In this document: piece after piece, positions 34,341 to 42,893 of the stretch
Position numbering within the stretch: the first letter of the stretch is position 1
Layout: each line of letters begins with the position of its first letter
Assembly: GCF_056712565.1 (NCBI RefSeq)
Contig: NZ_CM160072.1
Direction: 5' to 3' (one strand)
DNA: 64,000 nt
Translations under genes and position numbers: made by a program
Notes under the pieces: model-generated
Told to the model about the DNA's origin: nothing
Seen by the model: only the letters and a program-made list of their open reading frames with translations
The model's database searches: none

Positions 34341-36563
34341 TTGGCTGTTCAATTCGCTTATCCGTGGAACGTCCCACGGTCGGCAATCTCCAGCCCATAC
34401 CTTACTTATGAGCAACAGCATCGCCGCGACCGTATGTTCGCGGCTTTGCTGCATGCAAAAAAGGTGCTTTCTCTCCAGCCCGACTGCGTGCGGTTAGATG
34501 TTTATCGCACTGCTGCGGTGCTGGAGCAAAATCAGGGTAGTCAACGAGCCAATGCATTTTTAATCAGCTTCTGCAAAAAGGCATTGCCGCGTCTTGAACT
34601 GGTCGCAAAAAAATACGAATGCGCTGGTATCAACAGCAAGGTATCAACCGCTGTTTTTGGAAGTCATTTTGATACTCAGCAAATGCAATATCTGTCGTCA
34701 CGCATGGTTAATATGGTCGCCCGATATAACCGTCTCCCGGACATGTCGCGCGCTGATGTTGACCTGTTGGCCGCTGATATTGCTAATTTCATTCGTGGTG
34801 AACTTGCCAACATTAATGACCACGGATTCGGCGAGCTTAAAACGCTGTACACCTGGTATATTCGTGCTGGCTTTATTTCCCTCCAATTCAACGTTATCCC
34901 ACCACATTGGGAGCGGGTTGAAAAAAAATATGTCGGTGCGGATGAAATCGCACCGGCTATCGCCAAAATGTTTAACGATGGGTGGTGGCGCGGTCGTTTG
35001 CGCCGTGTAGCAGCTACGTGGCGCGAACACCTGCAAATTGCAGTCGGCAACGTCAGTAAGAAAAAAAACACTTACGCGAGTAAAAACTGCGTGACTGACT
35101 GGCGTGAACAAAAGCGCCGCACTCGTGAATTTCTCAAAGGTCTGGATCTCGAAGACGAAGACGGCAACCGTATCAGCCTAATTGAAAAATATGATGGCTC
35201 AGTTGCTAACCCTGCGATTCGCCGCTGTGAGCTCATGACCCGCATTCGTGGGTTTGAAAACATCTGTAATGAGCTCGGTTATGTCGGTGAGTTTTACACT
35301 CTAACCGCGCCGTCAAAATATCACGCCACGACTAAAGCCGGTTACCGTAACAGCAAATGGAGCGGTGCCAGCCCGGCTGACACGCAAAACTATCTAACCG
35401 GTATCTGGGCGCGTATCCGTGCCAAACTACATCGGGAAGATGTCCGTATTTTCGGTATTCGTGTCGCCGAGCCCCATCACGACGGCACTCCACACTGGCA
35501 CATGCTGATGTTCATGCTGCCGGAAGATGTTGAATATGTTCGCTCCATCGTCCGTAAATACGCATGGAAAGAAGACCGCCACGAACTGAAAAGCGATAAA
35601 TCCAAAAAAGCACGTTTCCACGCGGAGTCCATTGACCCGGAGAAAGGCAGCGCAACCGGCTATGTTGCTAAATACATTTCAAAAAATATCGACGGTTATG
35701 CTCTCGATGGTGAAACCGATGATGAAAGCGGTGAGCTGCTGAAAGAGACAGCCCCCGCCGTTTCAGCATGGGCTGCGCGCTGGCACATCCGTCAGTTTCA
35801 GTTTATTGGTGGTGCGCCGGTGACGGTTTACCGTGAGTTGCGTCGCCTCGCTGATACCGAAACCGCGCACGGTCTGAGCGTTGAGTTTGCCGCCGTCCAT
35901 GATGCCGCCGACGCTGGTGACTGGGCTGGTTATGTTAATGCTCAGGGTGGGCCGTTTGTCCGTCGCGATGATTTACAGGTGCGCACACTGTATGAACCGC
36001 GTACCGAGCTTAATCAGTACGGTGAGGAAACGGTATGTATTAAGGGGGTCTACGATTCCTCCATAGGTGCAGGAAGCCCGATTTTAACCCGGCTCACTCA
36101 GTGGAAGATTGTTCCGAAGCGTGCTGTTGATTTGCCCGTTGACCTTCAGGACGGCAAAGCCGTCCCTCGGAGTTCTGTCAATAACTGTACGGGAAGCGAA
36201 AGCGATCCACCGATACTGGATTTAACAAAACCACTGAGTCGGCGTGAAAGACGAGAATTGACCAACCGACTCAGGAAGCAAAAGCCAGCAGCACGGCGAA
36301 AATTCATCCACGGAACGGATGAGCAAAACGCAGCTATAGCTAAAACTATCGATGAGATACATCTGACAACCGGCATTAATATCAGCCGGGGCGAAGCCCT
36401 GCACCTGATGGCCGGTGGTAAAAGTTGTTTTGATGGTAAATGGCTACGCGGAACGGCCAAAGGAGAAATATTTTCCGCAGCACCATCGCATGAGGCTAAA
36501 GCTCGGAAAATCCTTAATCGTGTTGCGGCGATGGCTGAAGCATTAAAACCAATACATGAGTAA
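34341..36563 (+). CDS. replication initiation endonuclease (P2 gpA / 186 RepA family)
   Basis: 740 aa; position and size; HUH-like region (TPHWHMLMFM) and tandem tyrosines (YVAKYISKNIDGYAL). Confidence 0.8.
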   Translation: MAVQFAYPWNVPRSAISSPYLTYEQQHRRDRMFAALLHAKKVLSLQPDCVRLDVYRTAAVLEQNQGSQRANAFLISFCKKALPRLELVAKKYECAGINSKVSTAVFGSHFDTQQMQYLSSRMVNMVARYNRLPDMSRADVDLLAADIANFIRGELANINDHGFGELKTLYTWYIRAGFISLQFNVIPPHWERVEKKYVGADEIAPAIAKMFNDGWWRGRLRRVAATWREHLQIAVGNVSKKKNTYASKNCVTDWREQKRRTREFLKGLDLEDEDGNRISLIEKYDGSVANPAIRRCELMTRIRGFENICNELGYVGEFYTLTAPSKYHATTKAGYRNSKWSGASPADTQNYLTGIWARIRAKLHREDVRIFGIRVAEPHHDGTPHWHMLMFMLPEDVEYVRSIVRKYAWKEDRHELKSDKSKKARFHAESIDPEKGSATGYVAKYISKNIDGYALDGETDDESGELLKETAPAVSAWAARWHIRQFQFIGGAPVTVYRELRRLADTETAHGLSVEFAAVHDAADAGDWAGYVNAQGGPFVRRDDLQVRTLYEPRTELNQYGEETVCIKGVYDSSIGAGSPILTRLTQWKIVPKRAVDLPVDLQDGKAVPRSSVNNCTGSESDPPILDLTKPLSRRERRELTNRLRKQKPAARRKFIHGTDEQNAAIAKTIDEIHLTTGINISRGEALHLMAGGKSCFDGKWLRGTAKGEIFSAAPSHEAKARKILNRVAAMAEALKPIHE

Positions 36564-36676: not shown

Positions 36677-36859
36677 ATGGTTGGCGAACATTTCAGCCGA
36701 ACGCAGCAAAAGTGGGCTTGTGTGCAATTTATTGCCGAGGTATCTCTGATTGCAAACTGCAAGCCATCAGACTTAAAGCTCGCGCTCACTCTCATTGCAG
36801 ACCTAGCAAACAGCGAAAATAACGAAACCGAAGATGATAATTTTTATAAGGCTGATTAG
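36677..36859 (+). CDS. small SOS-controlled protein, possible Tum-like antirepressor
   Basis: 60 aa; GGAGGG RBS; directly downstream of the LexA box; position equivalent to 186 tum. Confidence 0.4.
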   Translation: MVGEHFSRTQQKWACVQFIAEVSLIANCKPSDLKLALTLIADLANSENNETEDDNFYKAD

Positions 36860-36862
36860 ATT

Positions 36863-37093
36863 ATGAGAATCAATATCACGTTGGATAAAGAGCAAAAATT
36901 AGGGCAACAGATCATTGATGCTTTTCAGAATGAAATAACACATCGAGTACAATGCGTTTTTCCTGCAACAAAAGTTAACGTTAAGAAAGGGTCAATGACT
37001 GGTGTAGAGGCTATCGGATTCGATAAAGAGGCGGACAGAGAAACATTAGGCAGCATATTACAAGAGATTTGGGAAGACGATAGCTGGCGTTAA
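36863..37093 (+). CDS. DinI-family protein
   Basis: 76 aa; MRINITLDK...QEIWEDDSW resembles E. coli DinI (MRIEVTIAK...QETWESADDW). Confidence 0.8.
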   Translation: MRINITLDKEQKLGQQIIDAFQNEITHRVQCVFPATKVNVKKGSMTGVEAIGFDKEADRETLGSILQEIWEDDSWR

Positions 37094-37576: not shown

Positions 37577-38518
37577 TTAATTTATTTTTAATGAATGGTA
37601 ATCTCGTGAGTTGACCGAAGATTTGAGATAACTGCAATCATTAACCGACAGTATTGCCGCTAATAGGCGACATACCAGTGCCTGCATTTGCAGCAATATA
37701 TCGTTACCATATTGACTGTTGTTAACACTTGAGAAACCAAGCGGTTGACCAAAAAAAATAGCCTCATGAAAATTATCATTGCGGATGCCAGAAATGTTTT
37801 TTTTACCTGACACCCATGTGGGGATTGATAACCCATAAATTTTGCACATCCACTTTAATCGCTTGTAATGATTTGGCGGTTTTTTATCAGGAGCCTTGTC
37901 ATGCTCAGCCCACGACAAAGCAAAGCACCCATCAAGTGCCATGTAAAGATACTGGAATTTTTCAAAAGAAAGGTATTGTGGGTTTTGAGATAAGAATAGT
38001 GCATGCACCACTGCCGCAATTCTTTTGGGGGAGTGCGCATCCTTATGTTTGCCATTTATATAATTAAGAGCCAGTTCTATGACTTCTTTTTCAGAGCATC
38101 CAACGAGAATAAAGTCGGTTAACTTAGTGGGCTTGATAGTGGTTGCATCTAAAAAACCAGCGTCAGTGGTTGTCAATCTTATTCCCTTGAAAAAAGAAAG
38201 GCACCACACAATAAAGTTGAGAGTTTCTAACGAGGATGTATTTTTTAATTTTAGTGTGTGCGTTTTGGGCATACTGAATACTCGGTGACTATAAGGCATT
38301 GTGGATATGCCACCATTAAGGTTATATACATCTTGGTTTCCAGGGTATATCCAACCTTTCACAACGTTTTTATCATTATTAACACGCTCCACTTTCTCAT
38401 TGAGACCAGGTAAAGTAAGCAAAGAAAATTGTTCAGTCTCAATGTTAACTTCTACTGGATAGTATCCAAACTCCGACATAATCTCATTGGGTTGCTGTTC
38501 GTCAACTTCACCTTGCAT
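37577..38518 (-). CDS. hypothetical 313-aa protein at the cos-proximal old/tin position
   Basis: Long AT-rich ORF; GGAG RBS; 16-bp perfect palindrome CTCGATAATTATCGAG at 38541-38556 upstream; no motif recognised. Confidence 0.7.
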   Translation of the reverse strand: MQGEVDEQQPNEIMSEFGYYPVEVNIETEQFSLLTLPGLNEKVERVNNDKNVVKGWIYPGNQDVYNLNGGISTMPYSHRVFSMPKTHTLKLKNTSSLETLNFIVWCLSFFKGIRLTTTDAGFLDATTIKPTKLTDFILVGCSEKEVIELALNYINGKHKDAHSPKRIAAVVHALFLSQNPQYLSFEKFQYLYMALDGCFALSWAEHDKAPDKKPPNHYKRLKWMCKIYGLSIPTWVSGKKNISGIRNDNFHEAIFFGQPLGFSSVNNSQYGNDILLQMQALVCRLLAAILSVNDCSYLKSSVNSRDYHSLKIN

Positions 38519-38755
38519 ATCTTTCTCCGTTCAAAAATAGGCTCGATAATTATCGAGAGGCTATCATGTTTGGAAAGAACCAATGTCCGTAATTTTTGTA
38601 AATTTAAGGTGATTTATCAATAAATAAGCTGTGCATGCAACAGGTGCATGGTTCTGCATGCGCCGGGGTTACCCGTTTTGTACGTGCGCCGCAAGAGCTG
38701 GCGGGGATCCAGAGTGGTCATGCAACTGCATTAAAACCGCCCCATAAAGCGGGCA

Positions 38756-38774
38756 GGCGTGGCGGGGAAAGCAT
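38756..38774. other. cos (cohesive-end site), 186-type
   Basis: GGCGTGGCGGGGAAAGCAT, 17/19 identical to P2 cohesive end GGCGAGGCGGGGAAAGCAC as recalled; sits between replication/accessory region and portal gene. Confidence 0.65.
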
Positions 38775-38993
38775 TGCGCGTCAGCAGTGATGCGTAATAA
38801 TAAAAATTATCCTCTGAGCGCGTCGTGATGGCGCTGTCGTGGTCGCTGCTGGTTCGTTGGTGGTCGGGTGTGTTCGTGCGCGTGAGACGCATCTGATGCG
38901 TGATGGTGGTGTGCATGGAAAAGCCACCAGGAGCAGCGGCTTTACAGGAGTGGCAGGATTCAAACTGCTAATTATGTTTCTACTATGATTAAA

Positions 38994-39998
38994 CTAATTT
39001 ACATGTATGTAGAGTTCACCGTCGCCAGACCAATCGGGACACTCTAAAACAAGCCCAAACTGCTTGAATATTTCATCAATGATTATTGTTATCTCCCGAA
39101 AATCACCAAAACCTGTAATGTGCTGGTCATTAAACTTCCCATAAAGATTCTGAAAAGCAATGCCTAATTCTGATAATTGATATCTTATCTTTGAGTTGGA
39201 TAGTGTAAGGGATAGCTTTGGATCGTATTCTTTAATATTGATGTTTAGAGAATGGACATAACCCATCGCATAAGCATAAGAGTTGATGATTAGCCTGATA
39301 CGTTTTTTTACTTCGAGATACATGTCATTCAGAGAAATATTACCGTACTTATAACCCCAGATGAGTTTTTCAATCTCGTCAGATACTTCATTTACAACAG
39401 TGTCAAGATTCTCTAAAAATAAATCGATAGTTTCTTGAGGGGCAGACCCCGAAGACATGTAATTAGCGAGATATTCAGACCATGCACGCGTGGCTGAGAT
39501 AAGAAGCGCGCTACCATACTCGTTGACTGTAAAGTTTTGGGCTAAGCATGTTAGTAAGTTTTTTTCATGTACGTGCACTAATTCATGGTGAATGCGATGG
39601 ATGACTGCGAGGTATCCTTCTTCTTTCAGTTTTAAGAAGCTACCATCATTGAAAAGCTCAACAAAAAAATCAATCGATAGCACAAGGGTATATTCTTCAC
39701 ATAGCCCATCATTGCCAATTTTTGTTACTAACTGCCCGACGGCTGCGCCCTGTTTACTATTGGTAAATGAACTAGGGGATTTGTGTTGGTAAGAGGATGT
39801 TACCTTTTGAAGAGCTTCACTGAAGTTATAGGAAACAATCACGCATTTTAATTTGGAGATATCAAGATTGAGATTTTTTGTTAAAGCTCGGATAGCTTCT
39901 AGTGTGAAATTACCGATATTATTTGCTTCTTGCTCAGTAGCGAAACCTTCGAGGGTTATTTTAAAATCAGTTTCCAAAATATTAATCTCCGCGCCCAT
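38994..39998 (-). CDS. hypothetical 334-aa protein with HExxH zinc-metallopeptidase-like motif (cargo between cos and portal)
   Basis: AT-rich ORF; motif VIHRIHHELVHVHEKN; own sigma70-like promoter upstream. Confidence 0.7.
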   Translation of the reverse strand: MGAEINILETDFKITLEGFATEQEANNIGNFTLEAIRALTKNLNLDISKLKCVIVSYNFSEALQKVTSSYQHKSPSSFTNSKQGAAVGQLVTKIGNDGLCEEYTLVLSIDFFVELFNDGSFLKLKEEGYLAVIHRIHHELVHVHEKNLLTCLAQNFTVNEYGSALLISATRAWSEYLANYMSSGSAPQETIDLFLENLDTVVNEVSDEIEKLIWGYKYGNISLNDMYLEVKKRIRLIINSYAYAMGYVHSLNINIKEYDPKLSLTLSNSKIRYQLSELGIAFQNLYGKFNDQHITGFGDFREITIIIDEIFKQFGLVLECPDWSGDGELYIHVN

Positions 39999-40016
39999 TG
40001 TTTTGATATTCGATGC

Positions 40017-40045
40017 ACTATAGCTTTCGCAGATTGCATCTTCAA
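40017..40045 (-). promoter_or_regulatory. sigma70-like promoter for the 334-aa gene
   Basis: Minus-strand TTGAAG-17 bp-TATAGT, ~20-50 bp upstream of the ATG. Confidence 0.55.
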
Positions 40046-40075
40046 TAATGAGCGCAGAGATTGTGGCGGCCTAAG

Positions 40076-41122
40076 TTATTCTGGGTTGTCGAGGGTGTAC
40101 TCTTTGAATCTGATGACCTCCATGCCGAGCCAGTCATTTACCTCCCTGAACCTGTCCTGTAGCGGCGACAGCTCGTTGCGCACAAATACCTTTGCCACCT
40201 TCTCAACATCACCGAGTGAACCGATATTCTCGGGCTTGCCGCCCATGAGCTGGAACGGTACGCGGTGCGCGTCCATCAGATCGGCGGCACTGGCCTTCTT
40301 GATGTTGAAAAAGTCATCCTTTGTGGCGACCTCGCTCAGTGGCACGATTTTGATGCCGTCCGGTTTTCCGCCGGGAGCGTAGAAAAACAGGTTCTTAAAG
40401 TTGCCGAGCCCTTTTGAGTTGCGCATCGCCTCGCGCAGCGATTCGACGTCGGTCGCGCTCTGCGCCGGGTCAGTCACATACATGATGTAACCCGCGTGCG
40501 CGCCGTTCTGATAATACTTGCGGCGGAACAGCGTCGCGGATTCATTCAGCCAGGCGGAATTTAGCGCGCTGAGATATTCGGGCAGGCCGTAAATCTCCTG
40601 ATTAATGTCGGGCTCCAGCAGGTGAAACACGGTATCAGGCGCGAACTCGTGCGGCTGGGTGAAGTTTTCCACAAACCAGAAAATCGAATCGTCGACTCCG
40701 CGTCGGGTGTATTTGGCTGGCGAGGCCAGCAGTTTGATTAACTGGCCGGTGACGCTGTGGCGCTGCTCAAGAAAGGCGTTACCGAACACCAGATAATCGA
40801 GCGCAAAGCGGCTGAAATCCTGACGGGATAACAACGGGTGCGGAATGTAGGTGCTCGCGAGCACGTTACGCTTAACATAAATTGGCGAGCTGTGATGCAC
40901 GGCAGAGCGCAGGCTCTTTGCCAGCCCTGAGAAGCTGACCGGCGGCTCGTACCATTTGCCGTTACTGATGCACTCGACGTAATCCAGAATGTCGCGCTTA
41001 TCGAGTACCGGCACCGGCTCGCCGAAGGTGAACGCTGTCGTTTTTGGCGGTGCGCTGGCGGTCAGTTGTTGTGGTTTGCTGGCCTTTTGTGCGTTGGCTT
41101 TACGGGATTTTTGTTTACCCAT
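40076..41122 (-). CDS. portal protein (P2 gpQ family)
   Basis: 348 aa; size and position adjacent to terminase ATPase. Confidence 0.85.
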   Translation of the reverse strand: MGKQKSRKANAQKASKPQQLTASAPPKTTAFTFGEPVPVLDKRDILDYVECISNGKWYEPPVSFSGLAKSLRSAVHHSSPIYVKRNVLASTYIPHPLLSRQDFSRFALDYLVFGNAFLEQRHSVTGQLIKLLASPAKYTRRGVDDSIFWFVENFTQPHEFAPDTVFHLLEPDINQEIYGLPEYLSALNSAWLNESATLFRRKYYQNGAHAGYIMYVTDPAQSATDVESLREAMRNSKGLGNFKNLFFYAPGGKPDGIKIVPLSEVATKDDFFNIKKASAADLMDAHRVPFQLMGGKPENIGSLGDVEKVAKVFVRNELSPLQDRFREVNDWLGMEVIRFKEYTLDNPE

Positions 41123-41123
41123 T

Positions 41124-42893
41124 TTAGTTGAACTCCAGAATAGATTTAGGCTGCATGCCGCTACCGGCAGAAAGCGGTTCGTTTAACAGGGCGTGCATGG
41201 TCGCCCATGCGATATCGGCGTGGCTGGCTTCCTCGGTGCGGCTGGCCTCATAGGTGGCGCTGCGCCCGCTGCTGGTCATGGTTTTGCGGATGGACATAAA
41301 CGACTGCGTGACGTCGGTTGCTCCGGCGTCGTACTCCAGACAGCCACGGCGAATGGTGTCTTTCGCCTTGAGTACCATTGCGGTTTTCATTTCAGGTGTG
41401 TAACGGATGCCGCGTGCCGCCGGGTAAAATGAGCGCACCAGCTGGAACACGCCGAGACCGAGGCCGGTTGCGTCAATGCCGATGTATTCGACGTTGTATT
41501 TCTCGGTCAGCTTGCGGATGCCCTCTGCCTGTGCTGCAAAATCCATGCCCTTCCACTGGTGGCGCTCCAGCATGCGGAACTTGCCACCAGAGACCACCGG
41601 CGGCGCGAGCACGACGCACCCGGCACTGTCGCCGGTGTGTGACGGGTCGTAGCCAATCCAGACAGGACGAGAGCCGAACGGATGGTCGGCGAACGGGGCA
41701 AAGTCCTCCCATTCCTCCATCACATCGACCATGCAGCGCTGCAGCTCCTCGAACGGGAATACCGACGCTTTATCGTCGACAAACTCGCACATAAACAGGT
41801 TCTTAAAGTCCTCATCACTGTTTTCGCGTTTGAGCTGGTCGAGGTCGAACAGGGTGCAGCCACCCGCAAGGGCGTCCTCAATGGTGACAATCTGCCGCCA
41901 CTGGCCATCGTCGCAGAGCTGGCCACCGGCGAGCGCGCTGTGACTGATGTCGATTTCGATGCGGTCGGCAATCCGGCTGCGCCCCTTGTTGAACAGCTCG
42001 CCAGACCAGAAGGGGTAAGCGCCGTGCGCCAGCGTGGAAGGTGTCGAAAAATAGGTCGAGCGCAGGTGCTTTTGCGAGGCCATGCCCGAGGCGACTTTGC
42101 GCAGTTTCTGAAAATTCGGGATCCAGAATATTTCATCGACATACAGATCGCCGTTATGGCTCTGCGCGGTGTTGGAATTGGTACCGAGAAAAATCAGTTT
42201 TGCGCCGTTGTTACCGATGACAATCGGGTCGCCAGTCAGGTCAACGTCGACCAGTCGCGCAAACTGGATGATGTATTCGCGGAACACGTAAGCCTGCGTT
42301 TTACTGGCTGATAAAAATATCTGGTTATGGCCGGTTTTGAGTACGCGCAGCAGTGCCTCGCGGGAGAAATAGAATGTCGCGCCAATCTGGCGGGATTTGA
42401 GAATGTCACGAATACGGTGCTCCAGTCCTGCGCGGTACCACTGCAACTGGTACTCGAAAGACTGGTCGAAAAATAATTCCTCTAGTTTATCGATAGCCTC
42501 GTCGCTGAAAAAATTCTTTTTCGGCTTTTTGCGCTCCCCTTTGTTGCGGTTGGCGACGTTGGGGTTAAGGTCGGCTTCGTTGCCGGTCTGGCTGTAGCGG
42601 TTGACTCGCGCCAACCGTTCAATCTGCCGTCCGAGCAGGTCAATCTCTTTGAAATCACCCCCTGTCTTTTGCGGCTTGGCGATGAGCTGAATCAGCCTAG
42701 CCTCAAGGCTGCTTTCAACGCGGGAAATCGGCGCGATGCCGTCCCAGCCGTCGCGCTGCTTCCAGCTCTGCACGGTCGGGCGCTTGACCTGCAGCATTTC
42801 GGCAATCTGTGGCACGGAAAAACCCTGCCAGTAAAGCAGCGATGCCTGCCGTCGCGGGTCATGCAACAAGGTTGTATCGGTGGAAATGGTCAT
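41124..42893 (-). CDS. terminase large subunit / ATPase (P2 gpP family)
   Basis: 589 aa, divergent from scaffold/capsid operon. Confidence 0.85.
   Translation of the reverse strand: MTISTDTTLLHDPRRQASLLYWQGFSVPQIAEMLQVKRPTVQSWKQRDGWDGIAPISRVESSLEARLIQLIAKPQKTGGDFKEIDLLGRQIERLARVNRYSQTGNEADLNPNVANRNKGERKKPKKNFFSDEAIDKLEELFFDQSFEYQLQWYRAGLEHRIRDILKSRQIGATFYFSREALLRVLKTGHNQIFLSASKTQAYVFREYIIQFARLVDVDLTGDPIVIGNNGAKLIFLGTNSNTAQSHNGDLYVDEIFWIPNFQKLRKVASGMASQKHLRSTYFSTPSTLAHGAYPFWSGELFNKGRSRIADRIEIDISHSALAGGQLCDDGQWRQIVTIEDALAGGCTLFDLDQLKRENSDEDFKNLFMCEFVDDKASVFPFEELQRCMVDVMEEWEDFAPFADHPFGSRPVWIGYDPSHTGDSAGCVVLAPPVVSGGKFRMLERHQWKGMDFAAQAEGIRKLTEKYNVEYIGIDATGLGLGVFQLVRSFYPAARGIRYTPEMKTAMVLKAKDTIRRGCLEYDAGATDVTQSFMSIRKTMTSSGRSATYEASRTEEASHADIAWATMHALLNEPLSAGSGMQPKSILEFN

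Follow-up and report, generated by a model that had tools for sequence, protein, structure and literature searches.

The Lit protein of the e14 cryptic prophage (Peptidase_U49), a zinc metalloprotease, causes abortive infection by cleaving EF-Tu once the Gol peptide of phage T4 is present. To our knowledge, it is the main example of phage exclusion by a protease that a single prophage gene encodes, and other protease-containing defence systems that we are aware of, such as IetAS and those linked to gasdermins or CHAT proteases, need partner proteins. Here we describe a single open reading frame (ORF), called the cargo gene below, which is carried by a prophage in a 64,000-nucleotide (nt) stretch of DNA (contig NZ_CM160072.1 of NCBI RefSeq assembly GCF_056712565.1; hereafter the window). 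Its product is predicted to be a zinc-dependent peptidase, and its most likely role, to which we give a probability of about 0.5, would be to protect the lysogen against other phages. An earlier reading of the DNA, made from the letters alone (the original prediction), had placed the gene between the cohesive-end site (cos) and the portal gene, in a hotspot for accessory genes at the left end of P2-like phage genomes. Both statements hold (Table 1): following the order gpA, cos, cargo gene, gpQ, the ORF lies within the gpA–gpQ interval and adjoins cos, and this interval is documented as the principal defence hotspot of P2-like phages (PMC9122126; bioRxiv 10.64898/2026.02.27.708500).

The cargo protein resembles Lit in several respects. 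Each is encoded by a single prophage gene with no partner, has about 300 residues, is or would be cytoplasmic, and harbours an HHExxHV-type motif (ILHHEISHV in Lit, RIHHELVHV in the cargo protein). Homology between the two was considered and rejected: an hhalign comparison of Lit with alignment A2, made of 50 relatives of the cargo protein at about 20–25% identity, aligned 15 columns around the motif with a probability of 16.7%. The cargo protein did not match Peptidase_U49 in Pfam, nor was there a PADLOC match. Lit is thus cited here as the best functional analogy for protease-based exclusion, and as an analogy only.

The HExxH motif reported in the original prediction is present. HRIHHELVHVHE corresponds to residues 134–145 of the cargo protein and contains the motif as H138-E139-L-V-H142. 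A chance occurrence is excluded, the motif being kept in 110 of 112 full-length representatives of the family, and WxE[YFHW] is found 31–40 residues past the second histidine in 103 of the 112. The sole invariant residues of A2 are H138, E139, H142, E175 and G246, with W173, Y176, A178 and S182 near-invariant. An AlphaFold2 model computed from a second alignment (A1, 33 sequences) reached a predicted local distance difference test score (pLDDT) of 90.7 and a predicted template modelling score (pTM) of 0.90. It consists of an N-terminal alpha/beta subdomain, a long helix (residues 126–148) followed directly by another one (160–185), and five long helices forming a bundle that a beta-hairpin closes. 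The catalytic domain has a thermolysin-like fold. In this confident zincin-fold model the HExxH lies inside helix 126–148 and the invariant glutamate is carried by the next helix, which bears out the zincin-like character proposed for the motif. Because two histidines and the catalytic glutamate are found on one helix and a putative glutamate ligand on the following one, the arrangement corresponds to the gluzincin signature, with H138, H142 and E175 as putative zinc ligands. We consider it highly probable that the gene encodes a zincin-fold protein whose active site is under selection. No transmembrane segment or signal-like N-terminus was detected in the cargo protein (maximum 19-residue hydropathy 1.19), whose isoelectric point is 5.0.

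Searches of Pfam and NCBIfam with the cargo protein gave no matching model, a Pfam scan of 50 family members returned nothing at E≤0.001, and PHROGs places the protein in phrog_11743, of 'unknown function'. When the PDB was searched with profiles A1 and A2, nothing but chance coiled-coil matches came up, no solved structure being a sequence-level relative. Covering 1.84 billion cluster representatives, an exhaustive HMMER search retrieved 130 relatives, mostly of 305–345 residues; a search of a 5.8-billion-protein set with the A2 profile added almost nothing, the word index limiting the search, and a related-locus search with A1 recovered only 8 species-level genomes and 12 viral contigs. Using Foldseek against AFDB50, we found full-length structural relatives (TM score about 0.8) in many phyla, nearly all of them labelled 'uncharacterized'. 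In BFVD, no structure matched at E≤0.001, and the viral proteins represented there thus gave no instance of the fold. Literature searches by accession, and for zincin or metalloprotease defence systems, did not find a description of the family.

Identity between the cargo protein and M1 or other thermolysin-like gluzincins (clan MA(E): M1, M4, M9, M30) is 9–12%. The second histidine and the glutamate are separated by 32 residues in the cargo protein and by 31–40 in its family, compared with 18–19 in M1 and M4. Membership in the M1 aminopeptidases was rejected on the grounds that the GxMEN motif is missing, the spacing differs, the N-terminal beta and C-terminal ARM domains of M1 are absent and Pfam Peptidase_M1 is not matched; indeed, none of the Pfam peptidase families matched the cargo protein or the 50 family members. 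An analogy between ExxxN and the ExxxD of thermolysin and neprilysin was also discarded, position Glu+4 being N in only 41 of 103 representatives. ImmA/IrrE proteins (M78) are likewise HExxH zincins of prophages and defence loci, and one AFDB structural neighbour is automatically labelled ImmA/IrrE. However, ImmA-type proteins have about 160 residues and are paired with a helix-turn-helix repressor substrate, whereas no such repressor adjoins the cargo gene, which has no conserved neighbour in the 18 loci compared below, and Pfam Peptidase_M78 gave no match with the cargo protein. The 'Peptidase + TM' construct pFR104 tested by Rousset et al. is not the cargo gene: it has a different sequence and encodes a 160-aa ImmA/M78 peptidase. 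Rst_DUF4238 (PMC9122126) shares with the cargo gene the gpA–gpQ slot and a single-gene architecture, and differs from it by the DUF4238 domain, which the cargo protein lacks. The possibility that the validated DUF4238 protein (WP_001515549, 309 aa) contains a zincin-like domain was dropped, as it consists of DUF4238 only.

The genes that surround the cargo gene are those of a 186/P2-like (Peduoviridae) E. coli prophage. An identical protein is WP_001622301.1 of E. coli SF-468, and an unannotated gene of phage vB_EcoM-613R3 encodes the same product. As originally described, the gene is AT-rich, with a GC content of 0.375 against 0.557 for gpQ, 0.569 for gpP and 0.512 for the whole window. Among the complete E. 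coli genomes that match a query covering the portal/cos region, 25 of 1322 (about 2%) carry it. Megablast matches to prophages without the gene delimit a variable cassette: on the cos side they break off at query position 306 (window 38905), and at the end of gpQ they start again at position 1488 (window 40087). P2-like prophages of Salmonella have 90%-identical genes in the same slot after the portal gene (two 90%-identity clusters, at least 1000 contigs each), with different genes across cos. A homologue follows the portal and Ogr genes in Yersinia, a related copy occupies an integrase/resolvase island in Enterobacter, and another one lies at the end of a prophage in Kosakonia, adjoining a YafO toxin gene. 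A 23%-identical relative belongs to the cargo cluster of a lambdoid prophage, between the tape-measure and gpJ genes, and a few distant relatives are located on large plasmids. The E. coli carriers include blood isolates and poultry isolates. The claim that the gene is accessory rather than a conserved morphogenesis gene agrees with this distribution, and we regard it as almost certain that it is mobile cargo and not a structural or packaging gene. In supplementary file 6 of Rousset et al. 2022 (PMC9122126), the arrangement WP_001622301 + WP_001622299 + ... + DinI is listed as 'hypothetical'; WP_001622301 is not among the systems that these authors cloned.

Table 1. Coordinates, in the window, of the cargo gene, its sequence elements and the neighbouring prophage genes.
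Feature	Position	Strand	Remarks
Cargo ORF	38994-39998	-	334 codons, ATG to TAA; encodes a soluble acidic protein of ~38 kDa with a predicted gluzincin-type fold
HExxH codons (H138-E139-L-V-H142)	39573-39587	-	putative zinc-binding/catalytic motif; invariant in A1 and A2; helix 126-148 of the model
E175 codon (WSEY motif)	39474-39476	-	putative third zinc ligand (gluzincin 'Glu helix'); invariant in A2; helix 160-185
Probable true start, TTG	39975-39977	-	codon 8 of the annotated ORF; gives 327 aa
GGAG Shine-Dalgarno sequence	39987-39990	-	9 nt upstream of the TTG start; GAG core invariant in A3
Sigma-70-like promoter TTGAAG-17-TATAGT	40017-40045	-	-35 at 40045-40040, -10 at 40022-40017; consensus scan 9/12
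5' arm of the 16-bp inverted repeat, AATCTCTGCGCTCATT	40047-40062	-	upstream of the -35, 14 nt past the gpQ stop codon
3' arm of the 16-bp inverted repeat, AATGGGCGCGGAGATT	39984-39999	-	overlaps the annotated ATG and the GGAG of the TTG start; followed by AAUAUUUU
Weak terminator-like hairpin	38923-38937	-	57-71 nt past the stop codon; pattern scan
Variable cassette, approximate extent	38906-40086	.	~1.2 kb; homology to gene-less P2-like prophages stops on both sides
186-type cos core	38756-38774	+	phage chromosome end; single exact match
gpQ portal gene	40076-41122	-	conserved left flank of the cargo ORF, same strand; last in the gpP-gpQ late operon; annotation of identical E. coli and phage records
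gpP terminase	41124-42893	-	
gpO and gpN		+	beyond gpP
gpA replication endonuclease	34341-36563	+	
313-aa ORF, unknown function	37577-38518	-	other side of cos from the cargo ORF

The cargo gene has no constant companion. ORFs were called within 5 kb on either side of the gene at 18 loci and then clustered; the only genes common to several loci were the target gene itself and P2 core genes, with the sole exception of IetA, found at two loci. In the absence of a conserved partner across the 18 loci, the gene is expected to act alone. A two-gene system formed with the 313-aa ORF located across cos was considered and rejected, since sequence divergence sets in just past cos in 9 of the 25 E. coli copies, Salmonella has other genes there, and no partner emerged from the 18 loci. 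The 313-aa ORF is a second cargo ORF, AT-rich as well (GC 0.385), which belongs to phrog_5937 (unknown function) and had no match among Pfam, NCBIfam and PADLOC models. It corresponds to WP_001622299 in the hotspot table of Rousset et al., and its link to the 334-aa gene is not constant.

Outside P2-like prophages, homologues of the cargo gene are often found close to defence genes. We scored the neighbours of the non-P2 homologues with PADLOC. In a Tn7-like cargo region (L007), IetA/IetS, a CBASS cyclase and a two-transmembrane (2TM) effector lie immediately upstream of the homologue, and Pfam-annotated type I restriction-modification genes lie downstream. IetAS is also found near the homologue at L003. 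The Wadjet gene JetD is present at L004, alongside Pfam-annotated Mks genes; a DRT-associated DUF1848 protein is encoded directly upstream at L025; a TIR protein is encoded upstream and PD-T4-7 downstream at L029; and AbiO/Nhi lies at 3 kb at L030. Weak PD-T7-4-like and PbeA-like matches were obtained at L026 and L027. No defence gene is near the homologue at L028, where PADLOC scoring of the neighbours gave nothing, nor at L005 and L013. Defence islands thus account for about half of the non-P2 contexts that were informative; the remainder are mostly cargo regions of prophages or integrative elements. Two details of these loci can be added. At L007 (6515–9026), the distant homologue P0087 (341 aa) begins 37 nt past the CBASS cyclase/2TM effector pair, on the same strand. 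IetA/IetS (AAA ATPase and S8 protease) is the only non-P2 neighbour common to two unrelated homologue loci (L003 and L007).

The fold is also encountered in fusion proteins. Proteins of about 700 residues in AFDB, such as A6X728 and A0A923AIT8, known by structure search only, join DUF4238 to the cargo fold (match TM score about 0.8). On its own, DUF4238 has been validated as an anti-T7 protein, which comes from the P2 slot that the cargo gene occupies (Rousset et al. 2022, PMC9122126). A metagenomic protein of 597 residues, P0155 (L021, 129–1922), is a fusion of the candidate-defence domain DUF2971/PDC-S31 with a zincin-like domain.

The original prediction spoke of a protein of 334 residues. 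The 334-codon ORF does exist, but translation probably starts at the TTG at 39977, so that the product would have 327 residues and the annotated ATG (39998) is probably wrong. This is deduced from three observations: the homologues of Yersinia, Enterobacter and Kosakonia begin at a TTG equivalent to codon 8, which is preceded here by GGAG; no Shine-Dalgarno sequence precedes the annotated ATG; and the model leaves residues 1–7 disordered (pLDDT below 50). Furthermore, TTGGAA at this start is invariant in a third alignment, A3, which includes the cassette copy of Enterobacter.

A sigma-70-like promoter directly upstream of the gene had also been proposed. TTGAAG-17-TATAGT is present, but with 9 of 12 consensus positions the term 'near-consensus' was an overstatement, and the match alone is not significant, 12 sites of equal quality occurring in 6.2 kb against 7.6 ± 2.7 in shuffled sequences. 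Conservation of the hexamers is better evidence than the consensus score. The Enterobacter copy is located in a different mobile element and its protein is 63% identical; in A3, TTGA.G, TATAGT, the 17-nt spacing, GAG and TTGGAA are all invariant, whereas spacer and leader sequences differ between the Enterobacter and E. coli cassettes. It thus seems that gene and promoter move together. On the other side of the ORF, the terminator-like hairpin forms a 9-bp stem in RNA folding, in a region which is overall no more stable than its shuffles.

The promoter is bracketed by the two arms of a 16-bp inverted repeat, the core of the stem being formed by pairing of AAUCUCUGCGCUCAUU (40062–40047) with AAUGGGCGCGGAGAUU (39999–39984). 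The RNA of the minus strand from 39960 to 40100 folds at -40.3 kcal/mol (z -4.26), and none of 200 shuffled sequences was as stable. The stem is kept in 7 distinct variants from E. coli, Salmonella and Citrobacter, with 93.8% of cells paired and three pairing-preserving changes. Only read-through transcripts can form it, because a transcript initiated at the cassette's own promoter would lack the 5' arm. In the fold-back inhibition of IS10, RNA that was initiated outside the element folds over the ribosome-binding site of its gene and sequesters it. The cassette is organized similarly, with the 5' arm upstream of its own promoter and the 3' arm over the Shine-Dalgarno sequence and start codon; it differs from IS10 in that its fold-back is a prediction without covariation, and the stem could instead be the terminator of gpP-gpQ. 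We hypothesize that, in read-through RNA, either the ribosome-binding site would be sequestered or transcription would end at AAUAUUUU, the stem then serving as a terminator for gpP-gpQ. The predicted fold-back would, under this hypothesis, favour expression in the lysogen.

The analysis itself shows the fold, the conserved catalytic residues, the accessory status and solitary organization of the gene, and its occurrence next to defence genes, whereas zinc binding, proteolysis, anti-phage activity, target, trigger and regulation are inferred. On this footing, the role that we prefer, protection of the lysogen, can be pictured as follows. The locus would be a self-contained mobile cassette, with its own promoter, ribosome-binding site and one ORF, inserted in the cos-proximal part of the gpA–gpQ hotspot. 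Its product would be a cytoplasmic, single-chain, zinc-dependent gluzincin peptidase with H138, H142 and E175 as ligands and E139 as catalytic base, composed of a thermolysin/M1-like catalytic half (about residues 1–185) and a helical half (about 186–313). In the lysogen, the cassette promoter would drive synthesis of the peptidase, which upon infection would cut either a protein of the phage or a host protein that is essential, much as Lit, to which it is unrelated, does with EF-Tu. The helical C-terminal half may, speculatively, act as a cap or sensor that restrains the peptidase, and the 16-bp fold-back may block translation from late-operon read-through. A more ambitious proposal, which we put forward tentatively and hold to be rather less than an even bet, is that the gene is the founding member of a new single-protein immunity family: a small gluzincin peptidase with a helical cap, sensor and effector being combined in one chain, spread over prophage hotspots, Tn7-like cargo and defence islands of Proteobacteria and Firmicutes, and insulated in P2/186-like phages by an IS10-like fold-back for expression in the lysogen only.

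The anti-phage role is plausible on the basis of guilt by association, at the even odds given above, and several observations weigh against it. The defence association is qualitative, with about 6 strong cases among 13 non-P2 contexts and no background statistic, and hotspots also hold non-defence cargo. PADLOC-DB v2.0.0 matched the cargo protein with 0 families at E≤1, in line with the original statement that it could not be assigned to a named defence family, and three distant stand-alone homologues likewise matched 0 PADLOC families. Convergence of H138, H142 and E175 on one metal site is a prediction. The zincin-like domain of P0155 has lost the first histidine (RELGH for HELxH) and the glutamate (WDAY for WSEY), so the domain can persist without catalysis, which suggests a possible non-catalytic role. 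The covariation test on the 7 near-identical stem variants gave no double-sided or compensatory changes. The Yersinia, L041, L043 and Enterobacter versions lack the stem, which is missing where an Ogr gene or another element sits upstream. Finally, a pattern scan between gpQ and the cargo ORF detected no terminator. The original prediction had held expression to be independent of the late operon. The predicted fold-back might block translation of read-through RNA, but because the gene follows gpQ directly on the same strand with no terminator detected, late-operon read-through or late lytic expression is possible.

According to one alternative, the cargo protein would be a helper or counter-defence enzyme of the lytic cycle, made late together with gpP and gpQ and degrading a host protein, be it a defence protein or a host factor, for phage replication. 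The same-strand spacing of 77 nt past gpQ with no detected terminator would permit such expression, the Yersinia homologue comes after the portal gene and the Ogr/Delta late-activator gene, and P2-like elements occasionally hold anti-defence genes (10.64898/2026.02.27.708500). It is nevertheless an unlikely explanation, for homologues stand beside defence systems in non-phage settings (Tn7-like cargo, chromosomal islands, large plasmids), no viral structure of BFVD matched at E≤0.001, the promoter hexamers are conserved within the cassette, the predicted fold-back would silence translation of read-through RNA, and the gene is present in only about 2% of the E. coli genomes in which the P2-like portal/cos region was matched. 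The neighbourhood of portal, terminase and cos could also suggest a morphogenesis or packaging protease of the head-gene cluster. That reading is effectively refuted by the distribution of the gene, which about 98% of the same genomes lack and which has homologues outside phages; moreover, its GC content is 18 points under that of the head genes, and P2-type heads already have gpO as scaffold.

A peptidase made in the lysogen could alternatively act in lysogenic conversion, altering host physiology (stress tolerance, turnover of an antitoxin or regulator, peptide scavenging) with no relation to phages. A stand-alone soluble enzyme with no partner would suit such a function, M1-like catalytic cores are typically oligopeptidases or aminopeptidases, and no defence gene is near the homologues at L028, L005 and L013. 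A comparable case is the prophage protease LfgB, which is reported to cleave the antitoxin MqsA. A protease of a cryptic prophage with a physiological role is documented (PMC10846083). Recurrent placement in defence hotspots and islands of distant taxa, fusion of the fold to defence-linked domains, and a rapid horizontal turnover typical of conflict genes make us assign a low probability to this explanation. It has also to be considered that the protein is a non-catalytic zincin-like module, a sensor or decoy that binds a peptide or protein and retains HExxH for a metal-dependent structure, as P0155, which keeps the fold with RELGH and WDAY and has lost the ligands, would illustrate. However, the conservation of E139, the catalytic base, together with the metal ligands, HExxH being kept in 110 of the 112 representatives and WxE too in 103, is what an active enzyme would show, and we hold the non-catalytic module to be very improbable.

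Several observations concern the prophage itself. The 19-nt 186-type cohesive-end core, GGCGTGGCGGGGAAAGCAT, occurs once in the window against 0 occurrences expected by chance; the P2/P4 version of cos, GGCGAGGCGGGGAAAGCAC, is seen in cloned inserts of PMC9122126 supplement 3. Tum-like ('UV induction of prophage') and DinI-like genes follow gpA (36677–37093), and the matching E. coli record has cII and fil upstream. With these genes and a 186-type cos, the prophage looks 186-like (SOS-inducible) rather than strictly P2, and for this reason 'Ogr-driven', the term used for the late operon in the original prediction, may be imprecise. A 51-aa 'hypothetical protein' of RefSeq (38635–38790, plus strand) overlaps the cos core and is probably a spurious call over cos and the GC-rich packaging region. 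On the identical sequence, RefSeq calls a gpA of 710 aa, 30 codons shorter than the mechanically called ORF (740 aa, TTG start), and phage record ON470592 annotates the long form.

The cargo gene is familiar in kind: it is a cargo of unknown function with a zincin fold in an interval already known as a defence hotspot, and there are many other hotspot candidates like it. Its family is new to the Pfam, NCBIfam and PADLOC catalogues and is a sound candidate for experimental testing. Should it prove to have no part in defence, it would still be an uncatalogued zincin family with no Pfam or NCBIfam model and no solved structure, for which a high-confidence model is in hand. The predicted fold-back suggests how a toxic cargo placed behind a strong late operon may stay silent. 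If the family does prove to be involved in defence, it would constitute a distinct single-gene metallopeptidase immunity module, in which clean catalytic-residue mutants are possible, and one of the entries listed as 'hypothetical' in the published catalogue of the P2 hotspot would receive a name.

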